A stretch of DNA of 64,000 nucleotides from Lytechinus pictus. Taxonomy: Eukaryota. Under the pieces are notes generated by a model. The model was not told the DNA's origin and did not search any database. It saw nothing but the letters and a program-made list of their open reading frames with translations. Position 1 is the first letter of the stretch; every line of letters starts with the position of its first letter. The translations under genes and the position numbers were made by a program. The stretch spans positions 2,792,001-2,856,000 of the forward strand of contig NC_087245.1 of assembly GCF_037042905.1 (NCBI RefSeq), in the 5' to 3' direction. This document shows, piece by piece, positions 14,784-46,479 of this stretch.

Positions 14784-14786
14784 ATT

Positions 14787-14829: not shown

Positions 14830-15150
14830 TTATTATCCAAAACAGGTTGCATCATTTGGTGATGATACCAACGTGCAATAAATACAATGCGCAACAACAT
14901 AACGCGACAGGTGCATTGTTAGAAGATATTGTGACGTAATGAGTAAAGTCCAGGCAACTATTATGACGTAGAGTTAAAACGGCAAAAGAGTCTATTGATT
15001 CATCGGTAAGAAAGAAAAGTTTACTTGGTTTCAGGCATTGGGAAGGCGCGGAAAGACACATTCACAATATATATATATGTATATATATATATTTATATTT
15101 ATTGCGCGTTGGTGTCATCACCAAATGATGCAACCTGTTTTGGATAATAA

Positions 15151-15193
15151 AATCATCCCTGAAGAAGGTCTATGACCGAAAATGTTGAAGATT
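15151..15193 (+). ncRNA. Second hammerhead motif, with two substitutions
   Basis: AAUCAUCC-CUGAAGA-AGGUCUAUGACC-GAAA-AUGU-UGAAGAUU. Confidence 0.5.
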
Positions 15194-15809
15194 ATGTCTC
15201 CTAACGGCGTTTCTATTAAGTCTTCTTTTGTTTATATATATATATATATATATATAAATATATGCATATATATATAAACATTTCCCTGAATCAAAATGGC
15301 TTAGTTCTTTAACGACAAGGCTTTGAGCAAAATTATTTGATAAGAGTGTCTCTAACTTTGTTGCACAACATCCTAGTACAAAATGAAATTGAATTGCCCT
15401 TTGAGCAACCACATATGAAGGCGAAATAGTTTTTTTTTTCAAGATTCACAAAGGAAAGAAAAAGGTAAAGTAATGACAGTGATCTCCAACATTTCTAGCA
15501 GTTTATTTCATCACGTTTCATGCTGTACTCACTAATTTGACCAAGCTATTTTCGACTACTTCTTGTGTTTATGCAAAACATTATAGTTATCGGGATAAAT
15601 GTGAATAGGTTTAACGATGGTTGATGATTAATTGTACAAATCAAAATTTTAGCATTCATGAGAAGAAAAATCATAATTAAAAACAACATGAAATTAATGC
15701 GAAAATGGGAATTTTTAATCTAAATGAAGTAGTTATACAAAAAGTGAAGGGTCTTAAAAACCTTTTCTCAAAGCCTTTTTAAGTCAAGGGGACTTACTAT
15801 TGTGAAACA

Positions 15810-16830: not shown

Positions 16831-17490
16831 TGGAAGAGAAGAGGAAATAGTAAAATAAGTGGATGGTGAGAGGGGAATAATTTGAAAGAGATGGGAGAGG
16901 CTGGAAAACGTAGTAGGAGGAAGTTTGAATGCTGAAGTTGTATCAGACATCCGTATGTCTATTTTTTTTCAAATGAGAATATAACCCAATAAGAAAGCTC
17001 GAAATCGATTTCATATCAAAGGATGGTGGGTTTTTATCTGTATCCCTGATTGATGTAATTTGACACCCATTTTTGCTCCTCCATTTTTTACCACCTGGGG
17101 AGGGGTGTTTCAGAAAAATTTAGGGTTAACCCAAATTGCACGCAATGTAACATATCACTATTTGCCATGTCTTCTCATGGGCAAGCGCTACAGGTAAACA
17201 TCAAGATGTAGCGTGTTTGTGTGCGTTTGCGCTTTAAGTGTACATTAAGACGCTCTCGTCAGTCGCGATCGCTATATTATCAGTGTTTCCCCTGTTGATG
17301 CGAGATCGGTGGAAAATGATCAGAATATATTCATTAAGAGTAAAGTAATTTCCTTGCAGTATCGATTAATCCCAAACTTTAACAAAGGCATTCCACTGTG
17401 TTTTTTAAACGTTAGAGGTCTTGTGAATAAATTTGATGATTTTAAATATGTTTTTTCAAAGGCGCTGTCTGATGTTGGAATAATCGGAAT

Positions 17491-20201
17491 CGGTTTCAAA
17501 CCGCCTCGATCACAAGAATCCCCCTTAAATTACGAGAAAATTTTTAGGCTAATAAATACCCATTAATTATTCCTGCTTTCACACCGCCCCGAAACATGCC
17601 CTTCGGGATAAATTCCTGAAGTTAGGAGCAGGCAAGGCGCGAGATTCAAAACCACTAGCCCAGCTGCCCAGCAGCCACCCAAGGCGCCCGCGCCCAACGA
17701 CACGCTGGGCTAAAAGTTCCCGTAAATTGCTTTCACATTGCCAAAATACCTGCGACCTTGGAAAAATCCCCGCGAAAGTTCTCGTAATTTCCCAAAGTAC
17801 CTACTATTTAGCGGGTATTTTCTTTCGGGGAAATTACGCGTAGTTTGCTTTCACATTACCAAAATACCTGGTATTTTCTGATCGGGGTAAATTTCCCGAT
17901 CAGAGAATACCTGGAACTGACGGACTTCGAGGCGGTCTGAAACCACCAACCGTAGTACATCACTAGGCAGTTTCAAACCGCCTCGATCACAAGAATCCCC
18001 GTTAAATTACGAGAACATTTTTAGGCCAAAAAATTTAGCGGGTATTTTCTTTCGGGAAAATTACGCGTAGTTTGCTTTCACATTACCAAAATACCTGGCA
18101 TTTTCTGATCGGGGTAAATTTCCCGATCAGAGAATACCTGGAACTGGCGAACTTCGAGGCGGTCTGAAACCACCTATTAATACTACTTGTTGATTGCGTC
18201 ACCCTAGTAGGAGTGTCAATCATTTGAACAAATTGGTAGGTTTCATTCAGTGCTTCCAGAGCGCGTGTTTCTGCTAATGATCTATCTTTATCAAAATTGC
18301 AAATCCCCGTTAAATTACGAGAACATTTTTAGGCTAAAAAATACCCATTAATTATTCCTGCATTCACACCGCCCCGAAACATACCCTTCGGGATAAATTC
18401 CTGAAGTTAGGAGCATGCGCAATATGGTCTAATAAGCAGGCAAGGCGCGAGATTCAAAACCACTAGCCCAGCAGCCACCCACGGCGCCCGCGCCCAACGA
18501 CACGCTGGGCTAAAAGTTCCCGTAAATTGCTTTCACATTGCCAAAATACCTGCGACCTTGGAAAAATCCCCGCGAAAGTTCTCGTAATTTCGCCAAGTAC
18601 CTACTATTTAGCGGGTATTTTCTTTCGGGGAAATTACGCGTAGTTTGCTTTCACATGACCAAAATACCTGGTATTTTCTGATCGGGGTAAATTTCCCGAT
18701 CAGAGAATACCTGGAACTGACGAACTTCGAGGCGGTCTGAAACCACCTTTTGGGGAAATTTCTCGAAGTTATGAGCATGTACAGTACTGTCTGGTAGCAG
18801 ACGAAGAAGCGCGCGCTTTTAGCGGTACGATCGGGGGACGGCCGGGGAGCGAGGGAAATCCACCTGCGGCTGGCCTAGCTCTAGCACGTACAAACTATAC
18901 TCGATCGTATGCGCAAATCATTTGTTCCCTTGATCATCTGCAATTGCACTAGATTTCTCTCCACATTGAAATTAAGGCCTTGGTGGCCTCCTCACTCCAG
19001 TGCAATGTCATCTGGTATGAAAATTTAGAATACCGGTAAATATCACCCTTAATTCGTAAAACTATCTTTTTAAGAAGAAGAATCAACCGCCTAGTCAAAG
19101 TCGAACCCCGAGTCACGTCGCATAAAAAGTGTACGTATGTTTATCGCTGCATAGCGCATGCACTGGCGCTGGCTTGCTCGCTCGGTAGGCCTCGCATCAG
19201 ATATAGCCTGCATATCCGGTCCCACGAGCCTAATTACATCAGGAGGGCTAAAGATATTCGTTCGACCCAACCCATTCGAATTTTTGTCAATTTGATATTG
19301 CTGATTGACAAAAATGTATGAATGTGATTCAAAATCTAACACTGATTCTAGAAATGGTAACTACTGAACTTACTTCGCCCAAATTGGGAAGATAAATAAG
19401 TGACTTGGAACTATTTTTTGACTGGCGGAATAATTAGGGCTATTTTACTGTTTCAGTTGATGAATTCGATCGATTCATAGTTATCTTCATAAATGGCGAT
19501 TTATTTTTAAAATGAGCTGGCTACGGTACCCTTTCCTGGTCAGATTTGGAATGTCAGATATATATCCTATCCATTGGTAGTAAACATTCCACCCTCTAAT
19601 TTCACATTTATTTTTTATGAATTTTTCAAAAGTGCCATTTTAACACACAAGTCTATGGGGAATGTTTTACGCGCGTGACACCTTTAAGTAATATGGGAAA
19701 TCTATAGTATGGATGGAATACCTGGCCAAACTCTTCAGTATCAAACAATTTCTCACTGATATCAATATGTTTAGTCATCAAGTGGTGCAAAAAAATGGAT
19801 TTAATGGCTAGCAGGGCTACATCAGGTAAAGTTAGTAAGTATAGGTCTGTGTAGCCTAGGAATGTATGTAGATTGGTCAATGTATAGAGTCAAGGCCTCT
19901 TTATGTTCTGATTTATCATTGTTTTGTGTTAGTGTACATCACCTACTTAGCATTAGAAAGACCTTTAGAAATTGCTCATGTTGAAATTGTTCTTAGGAAG
20001 GGGGTAGGTAGAGAGGAGATAGAACTTTGAGAACTTTACTGAAGAGAACTAGAGTGGTACCTTCAAGAAGGTATATAGAAAAGGGCACAGAGTAAGGTAA
20101 GGTATCTAATAGTGCTCAACTAAGGAGGGAGGGGGGGTGGCTGTGTGCTGCAATCTTAGTATAGCCCCCCCCCCTTTTATTAAGCCATGCCATCTATAAA
20201 A

Positions 20202-20245
<44 letters not shown>

Positions 20246-22088
20246 TTATGTATCTCTACCTTCTTACATCTGAGAGGCAACAGCCCTAGCAAGATTTTGA
20301 ATAGGTCAAATGCAAATATACTAAAGTAGTATCTCATTCTTTTATTGTTTCCTCATCCAATCTCATGTATATTTGGTATTTATGTTTGGGGCAATTCTGT
20401 TATCCTGATATCTACACATAATTTACATACACCTTTATATTACAATTAATAGGGACCTATATTGTCATTGCATTCACTGTTGGGCTATATGCAGGTAGGA
20501 TTTGTATACATCCATATACAGTGAAAATAACATGTATGGGTAACACATTAAAATGGGTGATTGCATAGAAAATTGGCATTTTCAATGCATTTCTTTGTAC
20601 TAGTGTGAGTGTACAGATATAAAAGAATAGCAAAGTAGCTATTCAAAAAAATAAAACACATAGGTCATATAATATAGGTCCCACGAGCCTAATTACATCA
20701 GGAGGGCTAAAGATATTCGTTCGACCCAACCCATTCGAATTTTTGTCAATTTGATATTGCTGATTGACAAAAATGTATGAATGTGATTCAAAATCTAACA
20801 CTGATTCTAGAAATGGTAACTACTGAACTTACTTCGCCCAAATTGGGAAGATAAATAAGTGACTTGGAACTATTTTTTGACTGGCGGAATAATTAGGGCT
20901 ATTTTACTGTTTCAGTTGATGAATTCGATCGATTCATAGTTATCTTCATAAATGGCGATTTATTTTTAAAATGAGCTGGCTACGGTACCCTTTCCTGGTC
21001 AGATTTGGAATGTCAGATATATATCCTATCCATTGGTAGTAAACATTCCACCCTCTAATTTCACATTTATTTTTTATGAATTTTTCAAAAGTGCCATTTT
21101 AACACACAAGTCTATGGGGAATGTTTTACGCGCGTGACACCTTTAATGCATATCGAACAGCGCGGGCTATGAACCGGAAATTCACTTATCGCGGTGATCG
21201 ATGGGATACAAGTTCCCGTAGTTTGCTTTCAGATTGCCAAAATACCTGCGACCCTGGAAAAATGCCCGCGAAAGTTCTCGTAATTTCCCAAAGTACCTTC
21301 TATTTAGCGGGTATTTTCTTTCGGGGATATTACGCGTAGTTTGCTTTCACATTACCAAAATACCTGGTATTTTCTGATCGGGGTAAATTTCCCGATCAGA
21401 GAATACCTGGAACTGACGAACTTCTAGGCGGTCTGAAACCACCTAGTGTACGAAACCAGAATTATTTACGGAATATGGTGTGATAACTTTATCTATCAGT
21501 GATCATTTTATGATTTTTGGAATTTTGTGTGGTAAAAAAATTTAAAAAGAATCCGAATGTATCACTTATAGAGCACAAGAATCCCCGTTAAATTAGGCTA
21601 AAAAATACCCAATAGGCGGTTTCAAACCGCCTCGATCACAAGAATCCCCGTTAAATTACGAGAACATTTTTAGGCTAAAAAATACTCATTAATTATTCCT
21701 GCATTCACACCGCCTAGAAACATATACCCTTCGGGATAAATTCCTGAAGTTAGGAGCATGCGCAGTATGATCTAATAAGCAGGCAAGGCGCGAGATTCAA
21801 AACCACTAGCCCAGCAGCCACCCACGGCGCCCGCGCCCAACGACACGCTGGGCTAAAAGTTCCCGTAAATTGCTTTCACATTGCCAAAATACCTGCGACC
21901 TTGGAAAAATCCCCGCGAAAGTTCTCGTAATTTCCCCAAGTACCTACTATTTAGCGGGTATTTTCTTTCGGGGAAATTACGCGTAGTTTGCCTTCACATT
22001 ACCAAAATACCTGGTATTTTCTGATCGGGGTAAATTTCCCGATCAGAGAATACCTGGAACTGACGAACTTCTAGGCGGTCTGAAACCA
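17491..22088. mobile_element. Cluster of about six copies of one ~450-490-bp TIR element (Harbinger-like)
   Basis: Ends GGCGGTTTCAAACCGCCTCG / CGAGGCGGTCTGAAACCACC. Copies lie at 17491-17947, 17966-18174, 18302-18747, ~18752-21443 (interrupted), 21574-21611 (fragment) and 21615-22088. Confidence 0.8.
19218..21146. mobile_element. Non-coding element with long terminal direct repeats (KolobokP-like), copy 1
   Basis: Direct repeats 19218-19687 and 20677-21146 look identical. Each has imperfect TIRs GGTCCCACGAGCCTAA / TTACGCGCGTGACACC and ends CCT-TTAA. The spacer is ~990 bp. Confidence 0.75.
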
Positions 22089-23317
22089 GTGAGAATAGCT
22101 TTCAGCATGATTTATGCAATGTAGATTGGAGTTTTCTAAATAGTGACGAAGGTATTGACTTTCTATGTCAAAAATGGAAGCAATCTTTATTGAATATTAA
22201 GTCACGGAGAGTTAAAGAAAAACATACACCATGGATAACAAGTGATATACGAGAAAACCGTATGATGATGAATTATGAAAAAACTAAATGTATGATTATT
22301 GGTACACGTGTTCGACTTGCAAACTCTATTCATTCCAATGAATCTCAGTTAAAAATTATTTGTAATGGTCACGAGATTATACAAGTTCAATCCTTTGAAT
22401 GTTTAGGTATACTTATTGATAATGAATTATCATGGAAAGAAGTTAGGTATCCTACGAAGGTTAAAAGGTTGTGTCAATGAAAATACTTTACTCACTTTAT
22501 ATAATGCTATGGTTTTGCCAATTCTAGATTATTGTTGTATTGTCTGGGGGGGGGGTAAATTCAAAGAAGATACCGAAAGATTGAATAAGTAACAGAAAAG
22601 AGCTGCAAGAATAATTTTAAATGCCCATTTCTTGACCCCTTCGGAAAATGTATTTGCCCTCTTAGACTGGAAAAGATTTGAAGATAGAGTTCGCATTTTT
22701 AGATTTATTTTAATGTTCAAATCTATGAAATGTATTGCTCCCACTTGTCTGTCCAAACTATTTACTTTTAGGAAAGAAATTCATTCACACTGTACAAGAA
22801 GTTCCTCACAAAATAAGTTACACTTCCCAAAATGTCATATTGAATCATTCAAACACTCATTTCATTATCAAGCCGTCTCATTATGGAATAGTCTTCAACC
22901 TGAACATCAAAACATAAATTCCCTCTCAATTTTTAAGAAATATTTAAACGATAACCTTTAAATCCAGTTGCAGCTTTTTTTTTATAATAGTAAATATCTC
23001 CGATGTCAATTTCGATTATAATGTTCTATGTATGTATATTCCCTTCTTTCTAATGATGTCCGTAGTTAATAATTATTTATAGTTTCGTTTATATCTTACT
23101 TCAACTGTTATGTTCTATCATAATGTATGTATATTTTCTCATGTTTATTTTACTGTGTATAATAAGATATATTATGATTGTTTTTTAATATGCAGGACCC
23201 CAAGGGATAGCAATCTTTATGTTGAATGGGTATCCTTTTGAAATATTGTTAATAAATAAATAAATAAATAGATAAATCAGTAACCAGTGGTGATCAGTAC
23301 CCGGATCAGTAACATAC

Positions 23318-24888
23318 CGCCCTTTCACACGGTAAAACAATCGTAATTTGAATGATTCCAGTTAAAAAATAAGGCTAATGGCGAATATTTAGCACGTGTG
23401 AAACCAAACTAAAACATGATTAGAATCACGAACACTAATCACAACCACGAATTAAAATTCCATATTTAGTCGGCAAGCCCTCAAAAAGTAGTTTCTTTTA
23501 TCCAAGTGATATTCATGACTAGAGGGTTTTTGCATTGTTTTGCATTGTTAAGTGCGGACGAAAACATCTCTTTCTATTCAGTTATTACTGCTCTAAATTT
23601 TGACCAAATTTCATGTTTTTGGTATCTTTATTAAGAAGAAAAATCATTCTTTTAGGTCATGTGTCTGGATTTTTGAAAAGATTTTGTAATATATATATGT
23701 TAAACTTTTGATCTAAAACATGAAACAAAATAATTATTTTCATGCAACAAAAGTTGTTGTTTTTACACTTAATTTCTGGTTGGGCCCAAATAATTTTTAA
23801 ATTATGATAAAGCTGAAGATCTAAGCTTTAATAGGCCCTATTATATAATTTTTATAAGAAGAGGTATCTTAGATGGGTCAGCAGCCAGCTTTTCATAGAC
23901 CAAGTACATTTAGCAGTTTTAAAACAAGAATACTGCACTCTGATTGGTCATAGAGACCACACACCCACGCAAATTCCAATGTTCCCACACTGGGCCTCTG
24001 TAAGGTCACACTCACTATGTGGAAATCTCTTCAAATTACCAGCGCCTGTTGTTTTGAAAATAACCAATCAGAACTCTGGATTTTATGCTACTCAGAAATT
24101 TCATTAATCTCGTCTTGCATTTTGGTGGAAAAGGCTGGCTGCTGACCCATCTAAAATGTCCCACATATCAAGCGTGACATTGTAAGAAAGTATAGAGTTT
24201 GAATTTTCTGATGATAAAAATAGTATTTGTGCCCAAAACACAAAATTTCGCACAATTTGCAAGAGAAAACAGAGGAAGAAAATTCCGTTTGAGGCATCTT
24301 TTCATGCCTGAAATTCACTTATTTATCAAAATATGTTATTCAAAAGAAATAATTAATATAAAAGTGTAACGTTTACTCTTTCATAATTATGTTACAAAAA
24401 TAATCAATTTTACCCAAGGAGAAAGAAGTTAAATTCTTTGAGAAAGAAAGTCTCACAATTCACGAGATTTGCAGGGACATGAATTCAGCCACGAGAGGAC
24501 TTGGATAAATCTTGCTCATTTGCTCATTAACATAGGGGCTTGCAGACTGACTGTCACTCCGGATGTGAATTCCAGTTAAGTTTCGATCAATTTACGGTAC
24601 GAATTTTGCGGGTGAAAGGCTTGACCTCCAAAACATATTTTGGGGGCGGAGCTTACGTGACCTTTCAAGCACTCCGTAGATAATACATTTGTCATGCACT
24701 CATCGTTTTTTTAATTTGCGAAGCAGTGCTTTGATTGACAAGTCACCAAGGACACATACCGCCTTCGCTCGGGAATTTCAATTCAAATCACAGCTATCGA
24801 GTGAGAAAAGTGAAAGGTCTGATGATTCTAAAGACGAATTGCAATCATTATTACAGTGATCATTCAAGACTCACGTGTGAAAAGGCCC
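23318..24888. mobile_element. MITE (GCCCTTTCACACG...CGTGTGAAAAGGCC) with a nested TIR element at ~23467-24549
   Basis: Outer TIRs as quoted; inner TIRs AGTCGGCAAGCCC...GGGCTTGCAGACT. Confidence 0.6.
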
Positions 24889-25995
24889 ATAAATACATGC
24901 GATCAATTACGGCTGATGTTAGCTACCACGGTCAATCACGGGTGGCATTAACATCAAAATGGGGTAACTCATCCTTAAGTAATTTTGGCAAAACAGAGAG
25001 TTCTTCACGACCTTTTGTTATTCGAGGATAAATTACCGATAAATTTAATACCAAAGTTCTTGATCTTTATTTTTTGACAACTCTACTGCATAGGCGGATC
25101 CAGGCCCCCCCCCCCCCTATTGGCGGAGCAAAAAAAAGGAAAAAAAGGGGGAAAGAAAGAAAAAAAGAAAAAGAAGGGAAAAGAGAGGAGAAAAAAGGAG
25201 AAACATAAGAGGAGGAAGACGAGCTAATAAAATAAGATGAGGGGAAGACTTAGAAAATAATGAAAAAAATCTTTCATGTCGGGATATAAAATTTTCGCTC
25301 GCGCTTCGCGCTCGCATTGCCTTTTAGGTGATTTACATATCTTGCTCAATATGGAACTTAAAATATCAAATTTTGAAGTCAATATACAAAACCAATTTCA
25401 GCTCGGAAATTGAACTTTCATTATTTTGTTTGATTTACAACTTGATTTTTAAAAGTGCTCTGTAAAAATTTCTGTTTTATGGTCTGAATATCAATATTTT
25501 CTGCTTGCGCTGCGCTCGCAAAATTTGATTTGTCAGGTACCTATTATTTCCTGTATTCCATAAAGTTATCAAAATATCCTTATTCAGGTCAGATTGTCAA
25601 AACGTATCAGCTAGCGCTGCAGGCTCGCACTTTGATTGGTGAGTTATGTATATCTCAATATTAATTCTAAAACAAACTACTTAAAATCCCCATTTGATGA
25701 CAGTTTATCATAAATTTCGGCTCGCGATTTCCGCTCGCGTTGATTGTTGAAAGATATTAACTCATGCATCTTATTCATAATTACAAAAGTGCTTTAAAAT
25801 AATGTCCAGTATTCAGGCCATAATATTAACCGATTTTGCGCTCTCATGCTTAGGAAGAGAAATAGGAAGATAGTCATTATTTTCATATGATGACATAATG
25901 TCCTTATAGAATGTCCCGGTCCTATGTCAAAACTCAAAGTAATAATAATGAAACATATCAGCTCTTTTTAAACTGTGATCCATATCCACGGTACC

Positions 25996-28204
25996 TGTCA
26001 GGAAAGAAATTTAATTACAAAATGTTTCAGTTTAAACATGTGTTCAACATATTTACTTGTCCAGGTTAGGGTTGTCTTGTAGACAAGCATATACATATGT
26101 TTTGAATGTTTCAAAAGCAAGCGTTGGAAACGTTTGATACCCCCCCCCTCCTAGAGTCCAAGATCAGATGGATGCCATATTTTGTTCAAGTGTTAGAAAT
26201 ATTTCGTTCTAGCTAAGCATCTTCATACAGGTGTCATAAATAGTTAATACTGTGCTTTAGCATTGATGAATATAGGTGTACAGATACACAGGAAGTGTCT
26301 TTTATTAATAAGAATGTGTTGCTTTATGCACTCATCTGCTATTGAAATTCTTTGGATTACTTTATATAAATTTTTCAGTTAGTCCTAGTAACGGTAGGTT
26401 ATATTAGGAGGTTAATTTCAGCAATTCAGAGAGAACCACCAAAGCTAGAATAGACTACAGATGATATTATAGGCAGTCCAAGTTAAAACTGAGGGACTAC
26501 GTCGGTGACGAGATAACGACCCCAGCTGCCGCGGCACAGTGGGCCGGGGCGAAACAAAAGTGCGCCAAAAGTCATTTTGGGCAATTTCAGATTTTTAATT
26601 TTTGTCATGCCCAGCTGAAAGACAACACTTTGAAGAATGCTTCAGCAAAATATTTCATTCCGGAATTTGCATAAAGGTTGTTAATTTCCTACCTCAAATC
26701 GTAAAATGTGACATTTTGCGAAATGTCGCGTATATGACAACCTAGTTAAAAAATAGGCCATTTCACAGGAGGTTTTTCATGTAGGAATCTGAAATGGCTC
26801 CCACATTACCCTGATATATTCTTTTTTTCGTACGAATGGGTTCAAAGTAGATAAAAGACACCTTTCAGGAGTTTTAAAGGATGAGTATTCCTCGAAATAG
26901 GCTGAAAATCCATGTTTTTTGCATTTACATTAGAAACGTTTAGATTTCCGTGGATTTCCGTCTAAATTCTATAAGCATCATTTTCCCCGATGTCTAAGCT
27001 TTAAGTCAATACCAAATTTAGCTGCCCGTTTTTGCCCGTTTTCATATTAGAGCCGAATTTACTTGACACAATACCCCAAAAACCTGTTAAAAAACGGTCA
27101 TTTTTATATCGCGCAGTCATCGTAGCGCACCGTATGGGTGTACATTGCCGTTCGCTTTGCACGGCGAGGACGATTCCCCTTCCATTCCATGAAAATGACA
27201 TGAATTCCGGGCATAATGTTAACAAAATAATAGTTGCTGACGCAAAAAAGGGCTATACCCACAACTCTTCCAGAGATAAAACTTATGGAATAATTTCAGC
27301 CAAAAACCGTCCTCATAGTAATACATTCGTGGTGTTATATACTCTGCGTTTTACACAAGTCAAGTTAACACAGCTTGATAAAGCACGGTTAATATTTTTC
27401 AGATTTTTTTTTCATAAATCTAATTAATGATCATTTTGATGCTTTAAAATTATTTTCGGCATCTCATACACACTTTTTGGGCATGTGAGAAGCATAAACC
27501 AACATTAACTCTTGTCAGTCTTAAAGTAGCACATAACACAAAGTTTGTATACTACACATTGTTCAGTGTAATTTGTCTTTTTACAGATATGTTTTAAGTA
27601 GCCAATCAAAATTTTGTATCAAGGTGACGTCATATCGGCTTTAAATTATGCTCAGTCGATTCTACACCCAAAATTGCCCATAATCAACATATTAAAGCAA
27701 AAATATAACACGGAATATAATTTTGGCGCACTTTCAACTCATTCTGGCCCACTGTGCGCCGGTTCTCCACCGACATGATTGGTCAAAATTCATGTCATCA
27801 TCGGGGGCTCGATCTCGTCCAATAATTCGTTGAAGCCACATCTCTGATCTGAGGGCTACTCATCAGGGGGCAACTGTCTGCGGAGGCCGAGGCCGAGTGG
27901 AAGAGACATCGCAAGCTGCGGAGGCCAGGAACTGGACCGACCACCAGGGCCGAGTGGGGCATGTCAACCCAGAACAGATGATGTGGGCTCTATTCAACTA
28001 TTGTTTAAGTTAAGTTATATTTTGTTATATCCATGTATATTTCATGTACAATCATTGTAAAAGAATCAAAAGGAAACCACAGAATGACAAAAGAGATTTG
28101 ATTAAATCTTTTTAATAACTGTATTCATCAGTTTTACGTATTCTTTATTTGGTGTCAAGCAGCAGTAGGTAAATAATTGAAAAAAAGTCACTTCCCATGT
28201 GACA
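25996..28204. mobile_element. Solo LTR (~990 bp after removing the nested insert)
   Basis: TGTCA...TGACA termini with an exact 5-bp TSD GTACC at 25991-25995 and 28205-28209. Confidence 0.7.
26535..27756. mobile_element. Non-autonomous Transib-like transposon with RSS-like TIRs
   Basis: Both ends read CACAGTGGGCC-N9-AAAGTGCGCCAAAA. The GC-rich 5-bp flanks are CGCGG and CGCCG (4/5 match). No transposase ORF is present. Confidence 0.75.
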
Positions 28205-28870
28205 GTACCTCACAATTTTCCCACAAAGTGCTTGAAATACAGAGCTTAAATTGATCCTTTTTCAGATCAGAATATAATATATTTTTAGCTCGCGCTTCGC
28301 GCTCGCTTTATTGATTTTCATGATAAGAAAGGTATTTAGAGTACCCAAATTCTAGGTCGAAATCGAAATATGCGTTTATTCAGATACGCAGCTTGTTCTC
28401 TATTTAAATCATTATCCAGTTTCAGATCACAATATAAAAAATTGTCTGCTTGCGCTTTGCGCTCGCATTGTTAATGTAGGAAACTTTCCAATTACTCTTC
28501 CTTTTCATGATTTACAAAACAGGAATAGAGTGTCCAGAATTTTTCCGCTCGCGCCTCGCATCAATTGTTTAGTTATATACTTCTCCTTTTGACGATCACA
28601 AAAAGTGTCTAGAATTTCCATTCTTCAGGTAGAAATGTCAACATTTTTAGCTCGCGCTTCGCGCTCGCACTATTTGATAGTTAAAATATGTAACGTCTTC
28701 ATGGCTAACAAGCAGCCGTTAACAGATCCTTTTTGTGATCAGATCAAAACGTATATTAAAAATAAATAAAAAAAGTTCTGCTCGCGCTTTGCGCTCGCAT
28801 TATTAATATAGGAAGATTTCCAATTACTCATCCTTTTCATGATTTACAAAATATGAATAGAGTGTCCCAT

Positions 28871-29976
28871 TTTTGTCTCTCCTGCATAGCAGAGTGAGAC
28901 TATAGGCGCCGCTTTTCCGACGGCGATGGCGGCGTCAACACCAAATCTTAACCGAAGGTTAAGTATTTGGAATGACAGCATAACTTAGAAAGTATATGGA
29001 CATATTTCATGAAACTTAGCCATAAGGTTAATCAAGTATTACTAAACATCCTGCCTGAGTTTCATGTCACATGATCAAGGTCAAAGGTCATTTAGGGTCA
29101 ATTAACTTAGACCATGTTGGGGGAATCAACATCAAAATCTTAACCTAAGGTTAAGTTTTTGAAATGTCATCATAACTTAGAAAATATATGGACCTAGTTC
29201 ATGAAACTTGGACATAAGGTTAATCAAGGATCACTGAACATCCTGCATGAGTTTCACATCACATGACCAAGGTCAAAGGTCATTTAGGGTCAATGAACTT
29301 TGGCCGAATTGGGGGTATCTATTGAATTACCATCATAACTTTGAAAGTTTATGGATCTGATTCATGAAACTTGGACATAATAGTAATCAAGTATTACTGA
29401 ACATCCTGTGCAAGTTTCAGGTCACATAATCAAGGTCAAAGGTCATTTAGGGTCAATGAACTTTGGCCAAATTGGGGGTATTTGTTGAATTACCATCATA
29501 ACTTTGAAAGTATGTTGGTCTAGTTCATAAAACTTGGACATAAGAGTAATCAAGTATCACTGAACATCCTGTGCGCATTTTAGGTCACATGACCAAGGTC
29601 AAAGGTCAATGAACTTTGGCCATAATGGGGGTATATGTTGAATTACCATCATTACTTTGAAAGTTTATGGATCAGACTCGTGAAACTTGGACATAAGAGT
29701 AATCAAAGTATCACTGAACATCCTGTGCGAGTTTCAGGTCACATGATCAAGGTCAAAGGTCATGTAAGGTCAATGAACTTTGGCCACCTTGGGGGTATTT
29801 GTTGAATTACCATCATATCTCTGTATGTGTATTGGTCTAGTTCATAAAACGTGGTAATAAGAGTAACCAAGTATCACTGAACATCTTGTGCGAGTTATAG
29901 TAGTTTTCAAAGTCAGCACTGCTGCTATATTGAATCGCGTGATGCAGGTGAGACCGCCAGAGGCATTCCACTTGTT
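28871..29976 (+). mobile_element. Helentron-associated (DINE-1/pearl/Tsp-like) element with ~160-bp internal tandem repeats
   Basis: Subterminal inverted repeats GTCTCTCCTGCA (28875) and TGCAGGTGAGAC (29943), a short 3' hairpin GCCAGAGGC, T-rich insertion site and a central tandem array. Confidence 0.7.
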
Positions 29977-31318
29977 AGGTTTAAATCTCGAATTTTTCAG
30001 CTCGCGCTTCGTGCTCGCATCAATTATTTAGTTATATATTTATCGTTTTCCATTCTTCAGGTAAAAATGTCAAAATTTTCAGCTCGCGCTTCGCGCTCGC
30101 ATTATTTGATAGTTGAAATATGTAACGTCTTCATGGCTAACAAGCTGCCGTTAACAGATCCTTTTTTTATCAGATCAAAACACATATTAAAAATTTCTGC
30201 TCGCGCTTCGCGCTCGCACTTTTTAAATAAGGCTTATGATATTATATGAATATATAGCTTAGAAGTGACTATTAGGACTACCCTTCAAAGAAACAAGTAA
30301 AAAGTAACTTCGAGCGGCCAATCGGAGAAAATGTGGCTGAAAAAAAAATTCCGCCCCCCCCTATTGGCGAAGGCTGGATCCGCCCCTGCTACTGTTGAAA
30401 CATTTACTTTCATCAATAAGGGCAGGCCTTTATTTATTTCTTGCCTGCGCTCTGATTACAACATACTGCATTCATCCAAGATAATATAATACCTTGTAAC
30501 ATCGTTTCATTAGTGTTCATATATTTCTTTTCACATTCTATTCTGTTTGTCGTCCCTTTCTAGCTAATAAAACTCGCTAGGCAGCGAAAAAGCTTATTCG
30601 CGAAAATATAATTGTTCATTAAGCTGGAAATTGGTGACTCTTATGAGAGCTGTTTGGTCGTAACAAAAATTGGATGACAGCGTCAGTGTTGGCTTTGCAA
30701 TCAAGCAGTTTTCACCCGAAGCTTTCCTCTTTACACATATAGGATAACCTTTAAACATGTAGCAGTGCATTGTTATTCGACAACGTCGTTGCGAATCAAA
30801 GCCTTTTTTAGAACATCAACACGGTAGTTGATGTGCTTCTGAAAAAAGTGGAAGGATGTAGGCCTACTCGGCATCACATTCACGCGAAGAAGAACTGTGC
30901 TATACACTTAATACAGACGGCATTTAACTTTGATAGTTTTGGTGCAGAGTAATAACAATTTATCATGTGTTTTGAATTCTCACTATTCTTTTTTTTCCAG
31001 GGAACTGCCATGTATACGTAACACCCAAGTTTATTAATCGAATATATTAAACAATTTATGTAATAAGGCGAAAGGCGTGAGGATAGAGAGAGCTCTACAA
31101 CTAACAGTGGGTCAGGACAGTGACATTCAACAACATAAAGGCTTAAGCATAGATTACCTTTTACTATCAATGTAAATTCCATGATATATACTTCATAACC
31201 AGAGGGATACGTCTGTGTGTAACTTTGAATTATCCTCGACCTCTTTGTTAATATTTCATCTTTGTAAATAAAAAATAACTTGTTACCGAACAATTTGTTT
31301 TGATTAATTCTTAGGACA

Positions 31319-32323
31319 ATGGAATCTAACGGCATGGTAACTTTATGCCAAATACTTTTGAGCATATTCAGCGGCTTTAACTTCTGTTCCTATATCTTCA
31401 TCATCGTGTGCATAATACGACATCCTAATCTTCAAACCATCACCAATTACATTCTGTTCTCGACGGGTATGGCTCATGTCTTATTTCAGTTTATGTGTAT
31501 CATCTTCATCTTTAAAACGGAGGACATTTGTTCCATTGGCAATCCTGTGATTTTTGTTGCAGTCATCGTCATCGGCATGATCGCTGTCTTTTATAACACT
31601 GTTCTAGTTACGATAGAAACTTATCTCAAGGTATGTTATCCCTTCTTCTATGCCCGCTTCATAACTGACCGGAAGTGTTTCGTTTCGTTGATATGGATCT
31701 GGATAGTGAGCATTTGCTCGGGAGTTACGGCCGGATATTTCTTAAAAAATGATAACAATAGTACATGCCTCTTTTATTACATCATGAGCAAAAGCGGTGG
31801 CAATGTGGCTTGGACATTGAACGCATCACTTATACCATCTTTGTTAATCATCACTGTCTTAAAGATTCTGGTAATCCATACTGCGAGAAAACAGGCCATG
31901 AGAATAGAACCGATTAAACCAATAGGGATTCAAGATAAGCAACGTAAAGGTTACATTGTCGAACAACTACAACTTAAATTCAAGAACATTCGCAAGAGCA
32001 CATTCAATCTCGCGATCTTTGTAGGGACATACATGTGTGGCTGGGTACCTATTCTTATCACCGTAAATGTCTGTGCGTTTAGACACTGTCAAGTGTCTGA
32101 TGAGGCTACGGTAATCGCTTTCCTAACTGTGGCAAACCTGACATCAGTAGGACCACTGGTATATACTTTAAGACAAACAGAATTCTCTCGCCTGCAAAAG
32201 CTCTATCGCCAACAACTAAAAGATTATGTGTGTCGACACTCAGGAGAAATACGCGAAAGGGACCGAAGGGTTCGGGTTAACGTTGTCATGTCCAAAGAAA
32301 CAAAAAACACTGAGTTTGGCTAA
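31319..32323 (+). CDS. Single-exon class A (rhodopsin-like) GPCR, 334 aa, putative chemoreceptor-type
   Basis: Seven hydrophobic segments; LQTITNY (ICL1/TM2), ETY...YPFFY (DRY region), ARKQA after TM5, GWVP (TM6), GPLVY (NPxxY region). Confidence 0.9.
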   Translation: MESNGMVTLCQILLSIFSGFNFCSYIFIIVCIIRHPNLQTITNYILFSTGMAHVLFQFMCIIFIFKTEDICSIGNPVIFVAVIVIGMIAVFYNTVLVTIETYLKVCYPFFYARFITDRKCFVSLIWIWIVSICSGVTAGYFLKNDNNSTCLFYYIMSKSGGNVAWTLNASLIPSLLIITVLKILVIHTARKQAMRIEPIKPIGIQDKQRKGYIVEQLQLKFKNIRKSTFNLAIFVGTYMCGWVPILITVNVCAFRHCQVSDEATVIAFLTVANLTSVGPLVYTLRQTEFSRLQKLYRQQLKDYVCRHSGEIRERDRRVRVNVVMSKETKNTEFG

Positions 32324-32494
32324 ACTGAAACTCAGTAATACTCACGGAACACGCATCATAGTCAATCAATTAATCAATGAATATGCCAAGTCATTTGTAT
32401 TTCAAAGATCTACGGATAAACTTTTGAATCTATTTTGTCTCTCATTGATCGATGTATTAATAAATTCAGATTTTAATTACGTCTATAGCCCAAT

Positions 32495-35006
32495 AATGTC
32501 TCCAAAACAGACAGTGGTAGCTCAGGCCATCAAAGAGTTACTGGGCAGTGATGACTTTGAAGAAACTCTCTCTAAAACTGCAACGCGGGAAGGAGACCGA
32601 CCAGTTATAATTAAACTCCAGTCATTTGCTACACAACAGAAGAAAGTAAAAAAAGATAATACAGGCATAACCATTCAAGAAGATCTAACAGAAAAGAATA
32701 GGGAATTGCTTCAAAAAGCATACAAACTCTTGAAAAAAATGAAAGTCAGTGGTGCTTGGTTTTCATATGGAAATATATTTGTGTCGATTCCAAATAGAAC
32801 TGGAAACCCAAGGTGGAAGCAAATCACCTGCAAAGAAGATCCGACAAAAATTTATCGAATACTTGATCAATCTGTTTAAAATACTTTAGACAAATCGTAG
32901 GAACATTTTTTTTTCTTCTGATGATTGCTTGATGCATATTTCAAGTCGTTTTATTCTGCACCATGTCTAGACTATATTACATCACTTTATAGGCCTACAT
33001 CAATTTGAATTTCTAATGTTTTTCTGATCACCGTTTTTGTGCTTCTGATAAGACTATATTCAATGTATGTCTTTTATGATGGGTGTGTAGTACCTGGTCA
33101 GTTTGGAATTTCAGAAGATAGTTTAGAACATTGAGTACTCAGTCAACATTTCACGATGATGAAATCATTGATTGAGTGCATGATATTGATTCTTAATTTA
33201 TATTACTCCCCAGACAGTCTCAATGCAATATTCAAAATTCGAGAAACCTCTCATGAACTGCCGTAGCTCGAATAAAAAAATGGAGCTGTATCAAACTTTT
33301 TATACATAGTAATTTGTTAAAAATTTGATGTTATTGCTTTAAGTAAACAAAAATTATGTTATTTCTTTAGGTGAAAAATGGCTCACTGATGGGCTGAATT
33401 CTATATTAACATTACCTATCTGCATTTTATGGGAACAAACGGAAAAACTCGTGGTGGAGGAGTTGGTATTTTTATTAAAAAAATGAAAATACCGTAAAGG
33501 ATCGACAGGATTTAAATGTATGCAATAATAATACAGAGCTTCACTGTGGTGAATTTGTGCAAAAAGGTAAAAACATTTGTTGTAGCTGTTGTGTATAAAC
33601 CAACAAAAAAGGGTAGGGATGCTTTATTTCAGAATGCTATCCAAAATGTGAAATGAAAATAAACGAATATACTTTTAATTTGAATCTACTAACCATGAAT
33701 ATAAAATCGAAATATAAATTTAATAATAAATGCACATTCTTTTTATCCTATTCTTACAAACCTACAAGGATAGTGTAGTCTTGCACCACATTAATTGATT
33801 TTCACAAATGAAAAGGGTTGGATTGAAAAAAGTGGTATATTCTAGCAGATATCAGACCATCTACCTACTTGTATATTTGTTCTAACTTTATGAAAATGTT
33901 CACGTGACTCTGTTTTTCATGTTATGTCTGAAAAAAAAGAAGATTATTCTCAGTTTCGAAATCACATAAGTAAAATATCCCGGGAGAGTGTCATAAAAAG
34001 TGTCACGGCAGAAGTTGCATATGACAGGTTTATGATTATTTTGAATGACATCTTTAATATCTCTTTTCCAATAGTTAAAAGGAAAATTTATAAACACAAA
34101 TGAAAGCCCTGGCTTACGCAATTTGAAATTAAACACACAAATTATAAAAGGTATCAAAATATTCTTATAAAAACCATTCGAATTGCCAAACACGACTATT
34201 ATACAAAGAAAATTTATGATGATAAAACAGATGGAATTTTAGAAAGAACGAAGAAGAAAACCACGCCTCTAAACTTCAATACAAATGACGGTTGAGTTAT
34301 CGATGAACGTACTGTAATAAGAAATAGATTTAATCAATACTTTGTAAATATTGGAACAGAATCTACTGATTCATCAAATATTAATATTTCTCACCGTTTC
34401 AGTTTCTTGAAAAGTCATGTTTCGCAATCTATGTATTTAAAACCAATAGAAGAATATAAGAAATTAAAGGTATTTAACAAGTTAAAGCAGAGGGAAAGTC
34501 CTGGTCATGATCATATAATTACCAGGATTGTAATTAAAAAAAATAATGTTACCACTTCATCATATATTCAACTTGTCATTTGAATCTAGTCTGGTACCAC
34601 AGAGTCTTAAATTAGCAAAAGTATCACCCATATTTAAAAAGTGCAATGAAGATATTTTTGTAAAGTATCACCCATATTTAAAAAGTGCCATGAAGATCTT
34701 TTTGTAAATTACCGCCCAGTTTCAGTGTTACCTGTATTTTCAAAAATTCTTGGATGTATAAACGTTTGCTTTCAATTCTAGAGAAAAATATCATTTTATT
34801 AAATTTTCAATATATAATTAAATCTGGCCATTCAACCATATTGGCAGTCACCGACTTCTTAGATCAGGTTGCCGATGCTATTGACAATACGAAACATACC
34901 ATTAAATTATAACTTGATATTTCAAAGGCCTTCGATTGTATCAATCATCAATTACTAATAAACAAATCAAAATATTATGAAATTCGAGGGATAATGTCTT
35001 ACTGCA
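32495..35006 (+). mobile_element. Decayed CR1/L2-like LINE: ORF1 C-terminus plus endonuclease and N-terminal RT
   Basis: ORF1-like ITIQEDLTEKNRELL...AWFSYGNIFV; ORF2 motifs GGGVGIFIK, SDHLP, KSPGHD, NYRPVSVLPVFSKIL and DISKAFD, with frameshifts. Confidence 0.8.
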
Positions 35007-35595
35007 TTAAAGGGATGGTCCGGGCTGAAAAATATTTATATCTTAATACATAGAGTAGAATTCACTGAGCAAAATGCCGAAAATTTCATCAAAATCGGAT
35101 AACAAACAATAAAGTTATTGAAGTTTAAAGTTTAGCAATATTTTGTGAGAAAAGTCGTCATGAATATTCATTCGGTGGGCTGATGATGTCACATCTCCAC
35201 TTTCCGTCTCCTTATGTTACTACATAAAATCATATTTTTTCATTATTTCATACTTGTGTGAATAATATGTCTTTCTTATAATAAAATAAGTTGCAGCAAT
35301 AAATATCTAATGCACTAAATCAGTTGTCAATCCAATTTTCTAGTTCTTGGAGGACAAAATTTGAATAAACCTAATTTCATATAATAAAATACAAAAGAAC
35401 AAGTGGGGATGTGACATCATCAGCCCAAGTAATGAATATTCATGACGACTGTTTTCACAAAATATTGCTTAACTTTAAGATTCACTAACTTTGTTATTTG
35501 TTATCCGATTTTGATGAAATTTTCGGCATTTCACTTAGTGAATTTTACTATATTTATTAAGTTATAAATACTTTCAGCCTGGACCATCCCCTTAA
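35007..35595. mobile_element. TTAA-flanked palindromic MITE (Kolobok-type)
   Basis: TTAA-AGGGATGGTCCGGGCTGAAA...TTTCAGCCTGGACCATCCCC-TTAA with long inverted arms. Confidence 0.85.
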
Positions 35596-35598
35596 GGA

Positions 35599-36040
35599 TT
35601 ACTTAAAAAACAGAAGACAATCTTGCTTATTAATATCATACATATTAAGTAAGGACAGTTTCTTAAATAAAGGTGCGGATGGTGCTAAGTAATGGGAATT
35701 GGTAATTATTCTTAAACATTTCTTTTGAATTTTGAATATTAAGTCCAATTCATATGAGGTTACATTGGTAGCCCAGACAATATTGCAATATTTTAAATAA
35801 GGGAAAATTACGGAATGGTATAGAGTTATCAAATTTTTATGAAGCAAACTATGCTTAAGTTTGTAAATTAAACCGGTATTCCTACTTCTCTCATGTAATA
35901 CATTTATCATATGGTACTTAAAACTCAAAAGATTATCCAATGTGACACCGAAAAAGTTAATGGAATTACTTAATCCAATACGTTTATTGTCGATATAAAT
36001 ATGAATATGAGCGTTGTCAATAGGATTATAATTATTAGAT
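35599..36040 (-). mobile_element. LINE ORF2 C-terminal fragment in inverted orientation
   Basis: LYHSVIFPYLKYCNIVWA...IQKKCLRIITNSHYLAPSAPLFKKL, typical of the post-RT region. Confidence 0.8.
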
Positions 36041-36438
36041 TTGTCAGTATGGGTTCATGTTAAAGATTTATATTTTTGTGAATATACTTGATTAGTTATT
36101 GCCGTGGTACGATGGTCATTATCATTATCATTATTATCATCATCATTCATATTATTATCATTATGATAGTAATCATATTTCTTAATCGCCACCTGCAGAA
36201 CAGAAAAATAATAATCTGTAAAGTATGAGTACTAAACTAATGACATATATGTCATCATATATCACTATGGTTGTGGAGGTACTCTATCCATTACAACCTA
36301 TTATCTCTAACGGCATGATTTTTCACGGAAAACACCTAATACTGATTGTTTATTAAGTGCAAGAGATGGATGGGTACATGTAAAACGTGCAAATAGAATA
36401 CGACATGTATAACGTATTTGCACTTAGCCTTCAAACTA

Positions 36439-37419
36439 CAGTGCGTATCAAAAAAGTTTACACTTTGAAAAAGCTCTGGGAATTCAAAAATATACAACAT
36501 GTGCGTATTTTTTTCACATATAATCTTGGGTTTGGGTCTCATCTATCCAATGAAAGTAAAAGTTCTGACAGAATGTTACACTTGAGTGAGCACTGTCCAT
36601 TTTTGTAAAGCTCGCAGAAATCTGTTTGCGCAGAAATGCTCTTTTTCACGCTGTGTCAAGGGGAAAGGGCGAAATCAAACTTACCCTGCGAAACATTTCT
36701 CATACATTTCCTTTGCACTTTTAGTCAATTGAAATAAAACGGATACATTCAAGCATTTTGTAACAATTTTGCCACCCAAATTGAAATTTCAACATTTATT
36801 AAGCACAACCTTTATCCTTTTTGTGCCAGCTGGATTTTGATGACATAACTGAACCTGAACAAAAGTTTATATCAGACATCTCCAGCATGTATTCACTGAG
36901 TTTTTATCATTTAAAGTGGGTTTACATTTCATTTTTCATTTAATACTTGTTTCTCCACACTTTTCCCAAGCTTGACAATGATTAACAAAATTAAATTCAA
37001 GCCTAAGCCATTTCATGTAAATCACAGCTCAGTGTAAAGCAAATATCGTCTCGATGGCCTCGGTGTGTGGGGGAGTGGGGTGGGGCGCAATGCACTCTTC
37101 GAAGTGTTTTGGGCAAGGAAACAAGTTTAAAAAGGTAAAAGATATCTTTAAATCAATTTTGCTAGCTAAATTCCATGTTTTCTTCATGATTTAGGTCTAC
37201 TTTTATTTACTACTTCAAAGTTCTACGCAAATAATTTTTCACTAAATTTTCAAAAGTAAGTGGTGCTCACTCAAGCGGAAATATTTTTCGACAGTTATAT
37301 CGTCATTTGCTTAAATAGATCTGTACCAATGTTAAAATGTGGAAAAATCTTCATGATATTAGAAATATATAATTTTACAGGATTTTTTCAAAGTGTAAAC
37401 TTTTTTTTGATACGCTCTG
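36439..37419. mobile_element. Non-autonomous Tc1/mariner element
   Basis: TA-CAGTGCGTATCAAAAAAAGTTTACACTTTGAAAA...TTTTCAAAGTGTAAACTTTTTTTTGATACGCTCTG-TA. Confidence 0.85.
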
Positions 37420-37908
37420 TATAGTTTAACCGAGAATGGAAAATGAGAGAGAGAAATGAAGAATGGAAAAGCAATGAGTAGGAAGATAGAGAAAAAATAT
37501 GCAAAAGGCCTCCCGTTAAAGCCTCTGATGGTAAAACCCACAAAGTTCATGTTGTTATTTCAGTAAATTAATAGATTGTATAAATATATATGTTCTAACC
37601 ATGTATGATAGGGGGATATGAATATAAAACGTGTTTTATTGGATTAATTCTCACATTTTACATAAAATTTTATTTTTTATCGGTCGCACAATCAAACTAC
37701 AATAAATGTGATTTTTTTTATATACAATGTCTTCCCAAGCACGAAAACGGCTTGACATGTTAGGATATATCTTCGTCTGTATCATCTATCTGCTATCCAA
37801 TGCACTACACATGTATAAAATTGAATGCTCAAATTGCCTTTTCTAGGGAAAATAAAAACTTCAGAGGGCGCTAGATATCCCGAAAATTAAATTCTGATTT
37901 CCACAGTG

Positions 37909-39825
37909 GGTCTCACAGGCCTAATTCATTCCCCATAGACTCGTGTGTTAAATTGGCACTTTAAAAAATTCATAAAAAATAAGGATGAAATTCGGGGGTC
38001 GACTGTTTACTACCAGTGGATAGGATATATATCTGGCAATCCATATCTGACCAGAAAAGGGTCCCTCGACCGGCTCATTTTAAAAATAAATTGGCGTGTT
38101 TGAAGACACCGTCGGGGGGAGCAGATTCATCACCTCAAACAGCAAAATAGCCCTAATCCTTCCGCCAGTCAAAATATAGTCCAAAATTGGTGATATTTCT
38201 TCCCAATTTGGGAAAAGCAAGTTCAGTAATTACCAAAAATAGAATCAGTGTTAGATGGACAATCATATGCATACACTTTGTCAATCAGCCATATCAAAAT
38301 AAAAAAAAATAGCAATGGGTTGGCTCGAATGAATATATCTTGCTTTCCCAATGTTAATAGGCCCGTGAGGCCTGTAATGTATGGCACATGAATGTTTCTT
38401 TTTAATTTACCTTCCTGGCTCTTCTTTAACATCTGTACACTCACTTTATCACAAAGAAATGCATGAAATATACAGATGTGTTATGTAATGACCAATTCTA
38501 ATGTTACTCCTAATGTCTAGTGCCCTATGGATTTACACACATCCTACCTGCCTATATGTAGCTCAACAATGGATGCAATGTAGGGCCCAAATCCTATAGT
38601 ACAAATTGTAGATATGAATAGTGTGCATATCTGGATGCAAGATCTGCCCACAATATAAATACCAGATTCACATGAGTTAAATTAGATAACAATAAAAAGA
38701 AATGAGAATCAACATACAAGCATACTATACATTCACATCTTCCTATGACAAGGGCCCAAGGGGTGTAAGAGAGAGAGACAGGGAGAGAGGGGGTTAGATG
38801 GCTTGTATTCTAAATGGATGGGGGCTAGTCTGGCTAGAAGTCAGTAAAAGTTGAACAAGATAGCAGTAGCACTCATTCTCAGCCCCCCCCCACATACTAA
38901 CTATGCTTTTCTCTAACACCCCCCTCCCTCTTGAATCCACCACTCTTCAGTCAAATTCTTAAGTTTTCTCTTCTCCTTCCCTTCCCCATGGACCAATTTC
39001 ACAAGTGCAATTGATGCAAGGCCTATCTAATGTGTACTATATCTTGTGATGGGTGCTATACACGATTTACAGCAGCACTCGTCGGTATACGAAAACACAC
39101 GACAACATGTAACGCAGAGACAAACACCCAGTCTACACAGCCTAGCCTAGGCCCTAGGTACACAAACACAGAGTTACTAATACAAATTTGTTACCTGTTA
39201 TACCCCCTATGTAGCCTTGTATATAGCCATGAAGTTGAGTTTTGGGACCTCTTGATGATTGAAACATGTATACTAGTGAAAGCAATCTGCTACTGAAGAG
39301 TTTGGGCAGGTATTTCATCCACTAGGGAATTCCCCTTGTAATAGGCTATGGTCAAGGTTAGAGGTCTCACAGGCCTAATTCATTCCCCATAGACTCGTGT
39401 GTTAAATTGGCACTTTAAAAAATTCATAAAAAATAAGGATGAAATTCGGGGGTCGACTGTTTACTACCAGTGGATAGGATATATATCTGGCAATCCATAT
39501 CTGACCAGAAAAGGGTCCCTCGACCGGCTCATTTTAAAAATAAATTGGCGTGTTTGAAGACACCGTCGGGGGGAGCAGATTCATCACCTCAAACAGCAAA
39601 ATAGCCCTAATCCTTCCGCCAGTCAAAATATAGTCCAAAATTGGTGATATTTCTTCCCAATTTGGGAAAAGCAAGTTCAGTAATTACCAAAAATAGAATC
39701 AGTGTTAGATGGACAATCATATGCATACACTTTGTCAATCAGCCATATCAAAATAAAAAAAATAGCAATGGGTTGGCTCGAATGAATATATCTTGCTTTC
39801 CCAATGTTAATAGGCCCGTGAGGCC
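37909..39825. mobile_element. Non-coding element with long terminal direct repeats (KolobokP-like), copy 2, opposite orientation to copy 1
   Basis: Direct repeats 37909-38372 and 39363-39825 are near-identical, differing in the length of one A-run. TIRs are GGTCTCACAGGCCTAAT / ATAGGCCCGTGAGGCC. Both the repeat and the spacer are homologous to the reverse complement of copy 1. Confidence 0.75.
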
Positions 39826-45897: not shown

Positions 45898-45929
<32 letters not shown>

Positions 45930-46385: not shown

Positions 46386-46479
46386 GGGTTAGTGGCTAGG
46401 GCGATCCCGATCCGATTGACCGTCAGATAAACAGATTTCGACACCACCAATTAAATTTCCTTCTTCGGGTGTAGGTGAG

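Follow-up and report, generated by a model that had tools for sequence, protein, structure and literature searches.

Two KolobokP transposons of Lytechinus pictus, ordinary in build apart from four odd letters at the edge of one insertion, possibly a clue to their mode of movement

A DDE transposase mobilises KolobokP DNA transposons in trans, and these cycle among solo repeats, monomers and arrays (PMC9587614). A monomer consists of an interior (INT) between a pair of long terminal direct repeats (LTDRs), and the traits listed for the group are LTDRs of about 450 or 660 bp, a terminal inverted repeat (TIR) of 11-18 bp with 5'-RR...YY-3' termini, and a target site duplication (TSD) of 3-5 bp, which is 4 bp in the families of Lytechinus pictus (LyPi). 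The same 2022 study proposed that a His-Me nuclease induces unequal crossover and stated that the pathway was unknown (PMC9587614); according to a 2026 review, the model awaits experimental confirmation (PMC13565253). For KolobokP-N2_LyPi, Table S1 of PMC9587614 gives 1904 bp, LTDRs of 465/464 bp, a TSD of 4 bp and a TIR of 16, with 313 LTDR and 156 interior copies in L. pictus; the LyPi LTDRs of this table measure 461-467 bp, and different non-autonomous families in it can likewise be close to one another in size, for instance four from Owenia at 1705-1797 bp. We compare here with these families two elements found in a 64,000-nucleotide stretch of the L. pictus genome (contig NC_087245.1, positions 2,792,001 to 2,856,000; hereafter the window), element 1 and element 2 (Table 1). 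Very probably both are young KolobokP DNA transposons of the non-autonomous kind, for which an autonomous relative supplies the transposase in trans.

A first-pass annotation made from the letters of the window had described direct repeats with periods of 1459 and 1454 around a non-coding spacer, and the same structure is found here, the spacers measuring 994 and 990 bp and no frame exceeding 93 amino acids. Element 1 contains an exact 470-bp direct match (19218-19687 and 20677-21146), of which 465 bp form the repeat proper while the final five letters lie outside it; the two repeats of element 2 are 99.8% identical, their single one-base difference falling in an A-run. The two elements agree with the annotation in having repeats nearly identical within a copy (99.8-100%) and diverged between copies (79%), and both have the LTDR-INT-LTDR layout with LTDRs of 463-465 bp that the group shows. 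They lie in opposite orientations (element 1 on the minus strand, element 2 on the plus strand), a point absent from the first-pass annotation. Each repeat does carry short TIRs of its own, as had been said: every LTDR has GG...CC ends and an imperfect 16-bp TIR, of which 12 positions pair in element 1 and 13 in element 2, in keeping with the termini listed for KolobokP. The longest stop-to-stop frames reach 78 and 93 amino acids in the two elements and the tblastx blocks are interrupted by stops, so both elements are non-coding, which is usual for the non-autonomous KolobokP families tabulated in PMC9587614. Within the 64-kb window we found no further LTDR (solo copies included), no interior remnant and no second copy of either insertion site; neither element contains an Rfam family at gathering score, and the repeats have no clear 10-bp AA/TT period in a raw autocorrelation judged by eye and without controls.

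All comparisons with sequences from PMC9587614 were made by eye. Against Data S1, the minus strand of the element 1 LTDR equals KolobokP-N2_LyPi-LTDR over 465 of 465 letters (seven printed lines), and the interior is about 97% like the 974-bp KolobokP-N2_LyPi-I, with about 22 substitutions and 11 indels. With its LTDR at 100% and its interior at about 97%, element 1 falls within the rule of more than 90% identity to the consensus by which copies of KolobokP-N2_LyPi were counted, and element 2 falls outside it, its LTDR being 79% identical to that of element 1, which equals the consensus. The assignment to KolobokP made by the first-pass annotation was right and can be sharpened: on its sequence, element 1 belongs to the published family KolobokP-N2_LyPi. 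Element 2 belongs to a sister family unlisted in the 2022 data. A motif common to the repeats of both elements matches four sequences in Data S1, all of them LyPi LTDRs; the start of the element 2 LTDR gave no match in Data S1, where a line break could mask one, though LTDR starts open lines. The family of element 2 may have been merged into a cluster of the 2022 study, in which families were clustered at 75% identity (PMC9587614). Metagenome contigs scanned with an 18-base repeat motif yielded 11 loci, none of them homologous by nhmmer.

Element 2 is homologous to element 1 along its full length. The LTDRs of the two elements are identical in 368 of 465 columns, with 94 substitutions and three gap columns (z of 38.6 against 100 dinucleotide shuffles). 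The first-pass annotation had claimed that the spacers were homologous too and had asked for their alignment, which bears the claim out with a z of 27.7: 640 of 1082 columns are identical (59%, or 71% with gaps excluded), conservation being highest at both ends and lowest mid-spacer, where the two elements nevertheless have in common a block of 97 bp at 71% (E of 1.6e-6). In the autonomous KolobokP-1_LyPi, the 466-bp LTDR closely resembles that of element 1, and the interior has motifs in common with both spacers near its start and in its last 60 bases, as well as a GA-rich tract similar to theirs. The likeness of the spacers is accounted for by both keeping the two ends of the autonomous interior, and judging from these matches each spacer is mostly these two ends, with the genes deleted. 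The special cis function which the annotation had read into the spacers is consequently not needed, the conserved parts matching the two ends of the autonomous interior; a cis role, or a constraint on spacer length, is possible. Because the 97-bp mid-spacer block was not spotted by eye in KolobokP-1_LyPi, the spacers could go back to a single old deletion derivative, or to a different autonomous lineage. A coding role of the spacer was considered and ruled out by the short frames and by the stops in the tblastx blocks. Element 1 is linked directly to a family with a transposase-encoding autonomous form, and element 2 through its 79% identity to element 1; KolobokP-1_LyPi is the likely source of transposase for element 1.

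We then compared positions 19000-21400, that is the site of element 1 only, with four of 24 public runs (X1, X2, X13 and X23); contig and read tallies refer to the best-supported among the matches listed. An abutting target duplication of 2-10 bp is absent at both elements. This is a trait of these insertions and not of the family sequence; only insertions with recognisable duplications were counted in PMC9587614, so that insertions lacking one are possible there. Three contigs in two of the four runs (one in X2, two in X1) represent the empty site of element 1: from 19200 they show 14-16 letters resembling 19201-19217, with the same last seven letters, and resume at 21146 or 21148. The site is thus polymorphic for the presence of element 1 and is empty in other individuals. 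The allele of the window equals the empty site plus element 1 plus exactly four letters, which is the duplication length of the family. These four letters are TTTA, found in none of the three empty-site contigs, and not the ATCC of the target; they are identical to element 1's own internal junction at 19683-19686, so that the identical block extends four letters past the repeat, into letters missing from the empty site. An 8-bp duplication around element 1 (19209-19216 and 21147-21154) was also tried as a TSD and ruled out, since both of its copies are already in the empty-site contigs. For the flanks of element 2, one reading among others is a duplication of CACA to which the left side adds three letters.

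The second letter of the junction 4-mer varies by copy. It is G in the consensus of KolobokP-N2_LyPi, in all of the X2 depth and in about one third of that of X1. X13 has A at this place in about 70%, and X23 has it in 21 of 21 reads. The outer 4-mer at element 1 is element 1's own junction version, despite this variation among copies; TTTA makes up 1% of the 4-mers in the window. The flanks of other copies begin after 21141 in 13 contigs of X13 and five of X1, and after 21142 in seven contigs of X1, which locates the end of the element and shows its copies to be dispersed. The first-pass annotation had given the ends as AGG...CCT(TTAA), and here it does not hold: the true termini are GG...CC, the A/T is absent at three of the four outer ends, and AGG...CCT ends with a TTAA target are ruled out by the contigs of other copies, which depart from the element right after 21141. 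That reading had taken in letters of the internal junction. Two contigs of X13 display an INT-INT junction, from interior end to interior start with a single 4-mer remaining, and a junction of this kind was ascribed to repeat excision in PMC9587614. The family of element 1 is represented by dispersed flanks and by these two contigs; short contigs do not separate solo repeats from multimers. In Figure S3 of PMC9587614, KolobokP targets are often T..A and AT-rich, and a few rows (by eye, uncounted) have a TATA like that of interiors at one edge but another 4-mer at the opposite edge; they fit the junction model described below but are confounded by the target preference.

We propose the following course of events. 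Both elements would have originated by internal deletion of an autonomous element, with both LTDRs and both interior ends kept, and an autonomous relative, such as KolobokP-1_LyPi, would provide the DDE transposase that binds their GG...CC ends and acts in trans; these two steps are drawn from what is described for the family. The likeness of the repeats would come from the recency of the copies and from passages of the family through solo repeats and through tandem arrays whose repeats all have a single ancestor. With rather more doubt than belief, we further suggest that cleavage at the ends is staggered by 4 nt and that element 1 kept four donor letters instead of one copy of the TSD, probably on leaving a tandem array where its outer end bordered on an interior end. 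The simplest single event would be a cleavage with a 4-nt overhang from the donor flank, retained on one side after repair; were the donor in an array, this flank would be an interior end and the two repeats would be identical from the start. Alternatively one repeat-plus-interior unit could be removed from a dimer, by the same chemistry and with the same product. A broader form of the proposal is possible but doubtful: monomers would leave tandem arrays, or circles of several units, through cuts whose 4-nt overhangs come from the adjoining end of an interior; the 4-mers TNTA/TANA at interior ends would serve as cleavage flanks that the element itself supplies, and new insertions would start with identical repeats and sometimes keep the interior 4-mer instead of one TSD copy. 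Junction swaps are not discussed in the main text of PMC9587614 ("overhang" appears once, about I-PpoI, and "hairpin" not at all), and we found no study of one in the KolobokP literature or in the post-2022 literature on the Kolobok mechanism, of which supplements and journals were covered incompletely.

Several points weigh against these readings, in addition to the by-eye nature of the comparisons with published sequences. Neither insertion has the TSD listed for KolobokP, and no autonomous partner of element 2 was seen. No contig or read among the matches listed bridges the filled outer junctions of element 1; the empty alleles belong to other individuals and depart from the window in the 17 letters ahead of the site; and the evidence for a footprint is a single site. 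The TAAA may stem from an earlier target and not from the interior end, as KolobokP targets are often T..A. Finally, the overhang chemistry is an analogy with piggyBac, from which Kolobok transposases stand apart, their group being that of hAT, P and MuDR (PMC9587614).

The missing duplications could instead reflect events after insertion or polymorphism of the site, either a pre-existing TTTA haplotype or an abortive excision repaired from the internal repeat, with loss of one duplication copy. Taken together, the three empty-site contigs and the window do show polymorphism at the site, and KolobokP excision loses 1-5 flanking bases on one side (PMC9587614); but TTTA occurs in no empty-site contig, and two events would be required which net by chance the exact duplication length of the family, so that we consider this explanation unlikely.

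An artefact of assembly or polishing, in which reads of the internal junction overwrote a normal ATCC duplication and perhaps produced some of the repeat identity, is in our opinion quite improbable. It would suit a swap of exactly four letters for four which copies the internal junction of a multi-copy family, a filled junction left unbridged in the reads, and a repeat equal to the consensus of the family next to an interior that departs from it by about 2%. Against it, contigs of X1 agree with the interior of element 1 at every letter over lengths of 233 and 130, as do contigs of X1 and X2 with the repeat over 125 and 184 letters, so these sequences exist. The outer ends of element 2 were not overwritten by its own junction letters, and the commoner junction letters are TGTA or TATA, not TTTA, in three of the four runs.

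We turn to the identity of the repeats within a copy. Because the families differ by 21% and the pairs within a copy by no substitution (against 94 between families), the repeats of a copy must, as far as sequence can tell, be homogenised from time to time. Had the repeats diverged from the consensus at the rate of the interior, each should carry about 10 changes, and the chance of none is about 3e-5 (from a by-eye count). The interior of element 1 is matched exactly by contigs of X1, though X1 carries empty alleles at the site; element 1 thus belongs to a young subfamily whose interior has drifted from the consensus while the repeat stayed unchanged. Two explanations fit this: the repeat may be under selection, or subfamilies may exchange repeats. 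The first-pass annotation had gone further and held that transposition regenerates one repeat from the other. One part of this claim stands, namely that some process keeps the repeats of a copy alike; the other part, that this occurs at each transposition, does not follow, as young age and the published multimer and unequal-crossover routes explain the identity equally well.

In its full form, the regeneration model has every transposition rebuild one repeat from the other, in the manner of LTR elements (with long terminal repeats) or through an LTDR-INT circle, so that new insertions start identical. The lack of substitutions within both pairs agrees with it, as does the extension of the identity of element 1 past its repeat, and a circular LTDR-INT unit was raised as a possibility in PMC9587614. 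However, youth alone permits the identity (the 95% upper bound on divergence within a pair is about 0.65%), occasional array formation or gene conversion homogenises equally well, there is no reverse transcriptase and no TG...CA end, no primer site or purine tract was seen by eye, and two copies cannot separate "always" from "sometimes"; we hold regeneration at every transposition to be improbable. As for non-autonomous LTR retrotransposons of the TRIM or LARD type, whose hallmarks are TG...CA termini, a primer-binding site and a polypurine tract, a non-coding core flanked by long direct repeats that are the same within each copy would suit them, but this identity is refuted by the letter-for-letter match to the repeat of KolobokP-N2_LyPi, by an autonomous relative which encodes a DDE transposase, by the GG...CC ends of both elements (the annotation had rightly noted that they are not TG...CA) with their 16-bp TIRs, and by a by-eye search beside the repeats on either strand in which neither a primer-binding site nor a polypurine tract was seen.

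One RNA run gave 901 reads on the region of element 1; 593 of these are only 90-95% alike and thus come from other copies. The reads are strand-biased about ten-fold at 19648-19809, at the junction of the last repeat and the interior (29.4 against 3.25 and 23.7 against 1.81 for the first mates); they begin at no defined point and derive from related copies. If the usual library convention holds, the RNA runs inward from the last repeat, in the direction of the nuclease gene of autonomous copies; it may also come from one host transcript.

Table 1. Coordinates of the two KolobokP elements and their parts in the window.
Feature	Position	Strand	Evidence
Element 1, non-autonomous KolobokP monomer (LTDR-INT-LTDR), assigned to KolobokP-N2_LyPi, 1924 bp	19218..21141	-	Repeat comparison and by-eye match to Data S1 of PMC9587614
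Element 1, first LTDR (element orientation), 465 bp, GG...CC, TIR 12/16	20677..21141	-	Equal to KolobokP-N2_LyPi-LTDR, 7/7 printed lines
Element 1, interior, 994 bp, non-coding, start TATA, end TAAA (element orientation)	19683..20676	-	By-eye comparison with KolobokP-N2_LyPi-I
Element 1, second LTDR, same as first	19218..19682	-	Repeat comparison
Target 4-mer ATCC adjoining element 1, single copy	19214..19217	.	Flank check and empty-site contigs
Four extra letters TTTA (plus strand) at the expected position of the second ATCC	21142..21145	.	Empty-site contigs, runs X1 and X2
Element 2, non-autonomous KolobokP monomer, 1917 bp, placed in a sister family absent from the 2022 data	37909..39825	+	Sequence comparison
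Element 2, left LTDR, 464 bp, GG...CC, TIR 13/16	37909..38372	+	Sequence comparison
Element 2, interior, 990 bp, non-coding, start TGTA, end TAGA	38373..39362	+	Sequence comparison
Element 2, right LTDR, 463 bp, one base fewer in A-run	39363..39825	+	Repeat comparison

Element 1 lies within a cluster of an unrelated repeat of about 450 bp (17491-18748 and 21199-22088) with inverted ends of about 18-20 bp, whose whole and partial copies, with three left ends and five right ends, are 90-97% alike and have deep coverage in all four runs; this repeat looks like a miniature inverted-repeat transposable element (MITE). Short frames at 17249-17566, 22064-22961 and 35599-36054 have no Pfam match and presumably resemble a decayed non-LTR retrotransposon protein; as the first two bracket the MITE cluster together with element 1, a nest of insertions is suggested. 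Elsewhere in the window, long inverted repeats at 2658-2895, 14786-15194 and 35007-35595 (arms of 119, 102 and 174 bp) are probably MITEs, and a tandem array with units of 163-192 bp and 83-88% matches lies at 28927-29900. Single-frame open reading frames for rhodopsin-family receptors form a small cluster at 31304-32323, 43012-44160 and 58326-59402, with 7tm_1 E-values of 8e-18, 1e-8 and 1e-6, the third just below the curated cut-off; a homologue search with one G protein-coupled receptor (GPCR) returned a single protein, at 66%. A tandem duplication at 43723-54913, with a period of about 4.2 kb and 97-99% identity, could be a recent duplication or an effect of assembly. It repeats the 3' end of a GPCR gene (46479-46910 and 50701-51132), tracts of TAC and of AT, and a stretch resembling a tRNA (46314, 50536 and 54748) which scores 35.7 bits with Rfam and is not called by ARAGORN; the three Rfam matches of the window are all tRNA-like and lie outside both elements. 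An exon-like frame at 8319-8580 with a hydrophobic leader and a basic pair resembles a secreted peptide precursor and has no Pfam match.

The value of these elements for annotation is small: element 1 is already published, and with element 2 a lineage of 228 gains one more family of the non-autonomous kind. The swap of four letters for four at element 1 provides a lead on how the ends are cut and on whether arrays are donors. If true, excision from arrays would give a genomic footprint of the KolobokP pathway in insertions that the 2022 study left uncounted because they had no duplication. Moreover, a young family for which living populations carry both filled and empty alleles offers a good basis for a transposition assay.

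Compared with KolobokP-N2_LyPi, element 1 is alike in its LTDR, its layout, its GG...CC ends, its 16-bp TIR and its lack of genes. It is unlike the published family in length (1924 against 1904 bp, mainly owing to a longer GA tract), in its interior end (TAAA against TACA) and in having no 4-bp target duplication, whereas element 2 has an LTDR only 79%, and an interior only 59%, like those of that family. KolobokP-1_LyPi (autonomous, 4984 bp), KolobokP-N1_LyPi and N2BDR_LyPi have LTDRs of 461-466 bp closely resembling that of element 1, and motifs in common with it near both ends of the interior; the genes for the DDE transposase and the His-Me finger nuclease of the first are absent from elements 1 and 2. 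The resemblance to piggyBac is one of working only: according to Chen et al. 2020 (PMC7351741), piggyBac has a 4-bp duplication and 4-nt donor-derived overhangs on its excised ends, and its excision leaves one 4-mer, as at the KolobokP INT-INT junctions, but it belongs to another superfamily with other termini, has no long direct repeats and keeps to a strict TTAA target. Bacterial composite transposons and circles of the IS26/IS3 type are alike in having two directly repeated, separately excisable modules around an interior, and in the few-base spacers carried over from the donor (PMC9587614). In KolobokP, by contrast, the modules are non-coding, and it is the autonomous form's interior that holds the genes.

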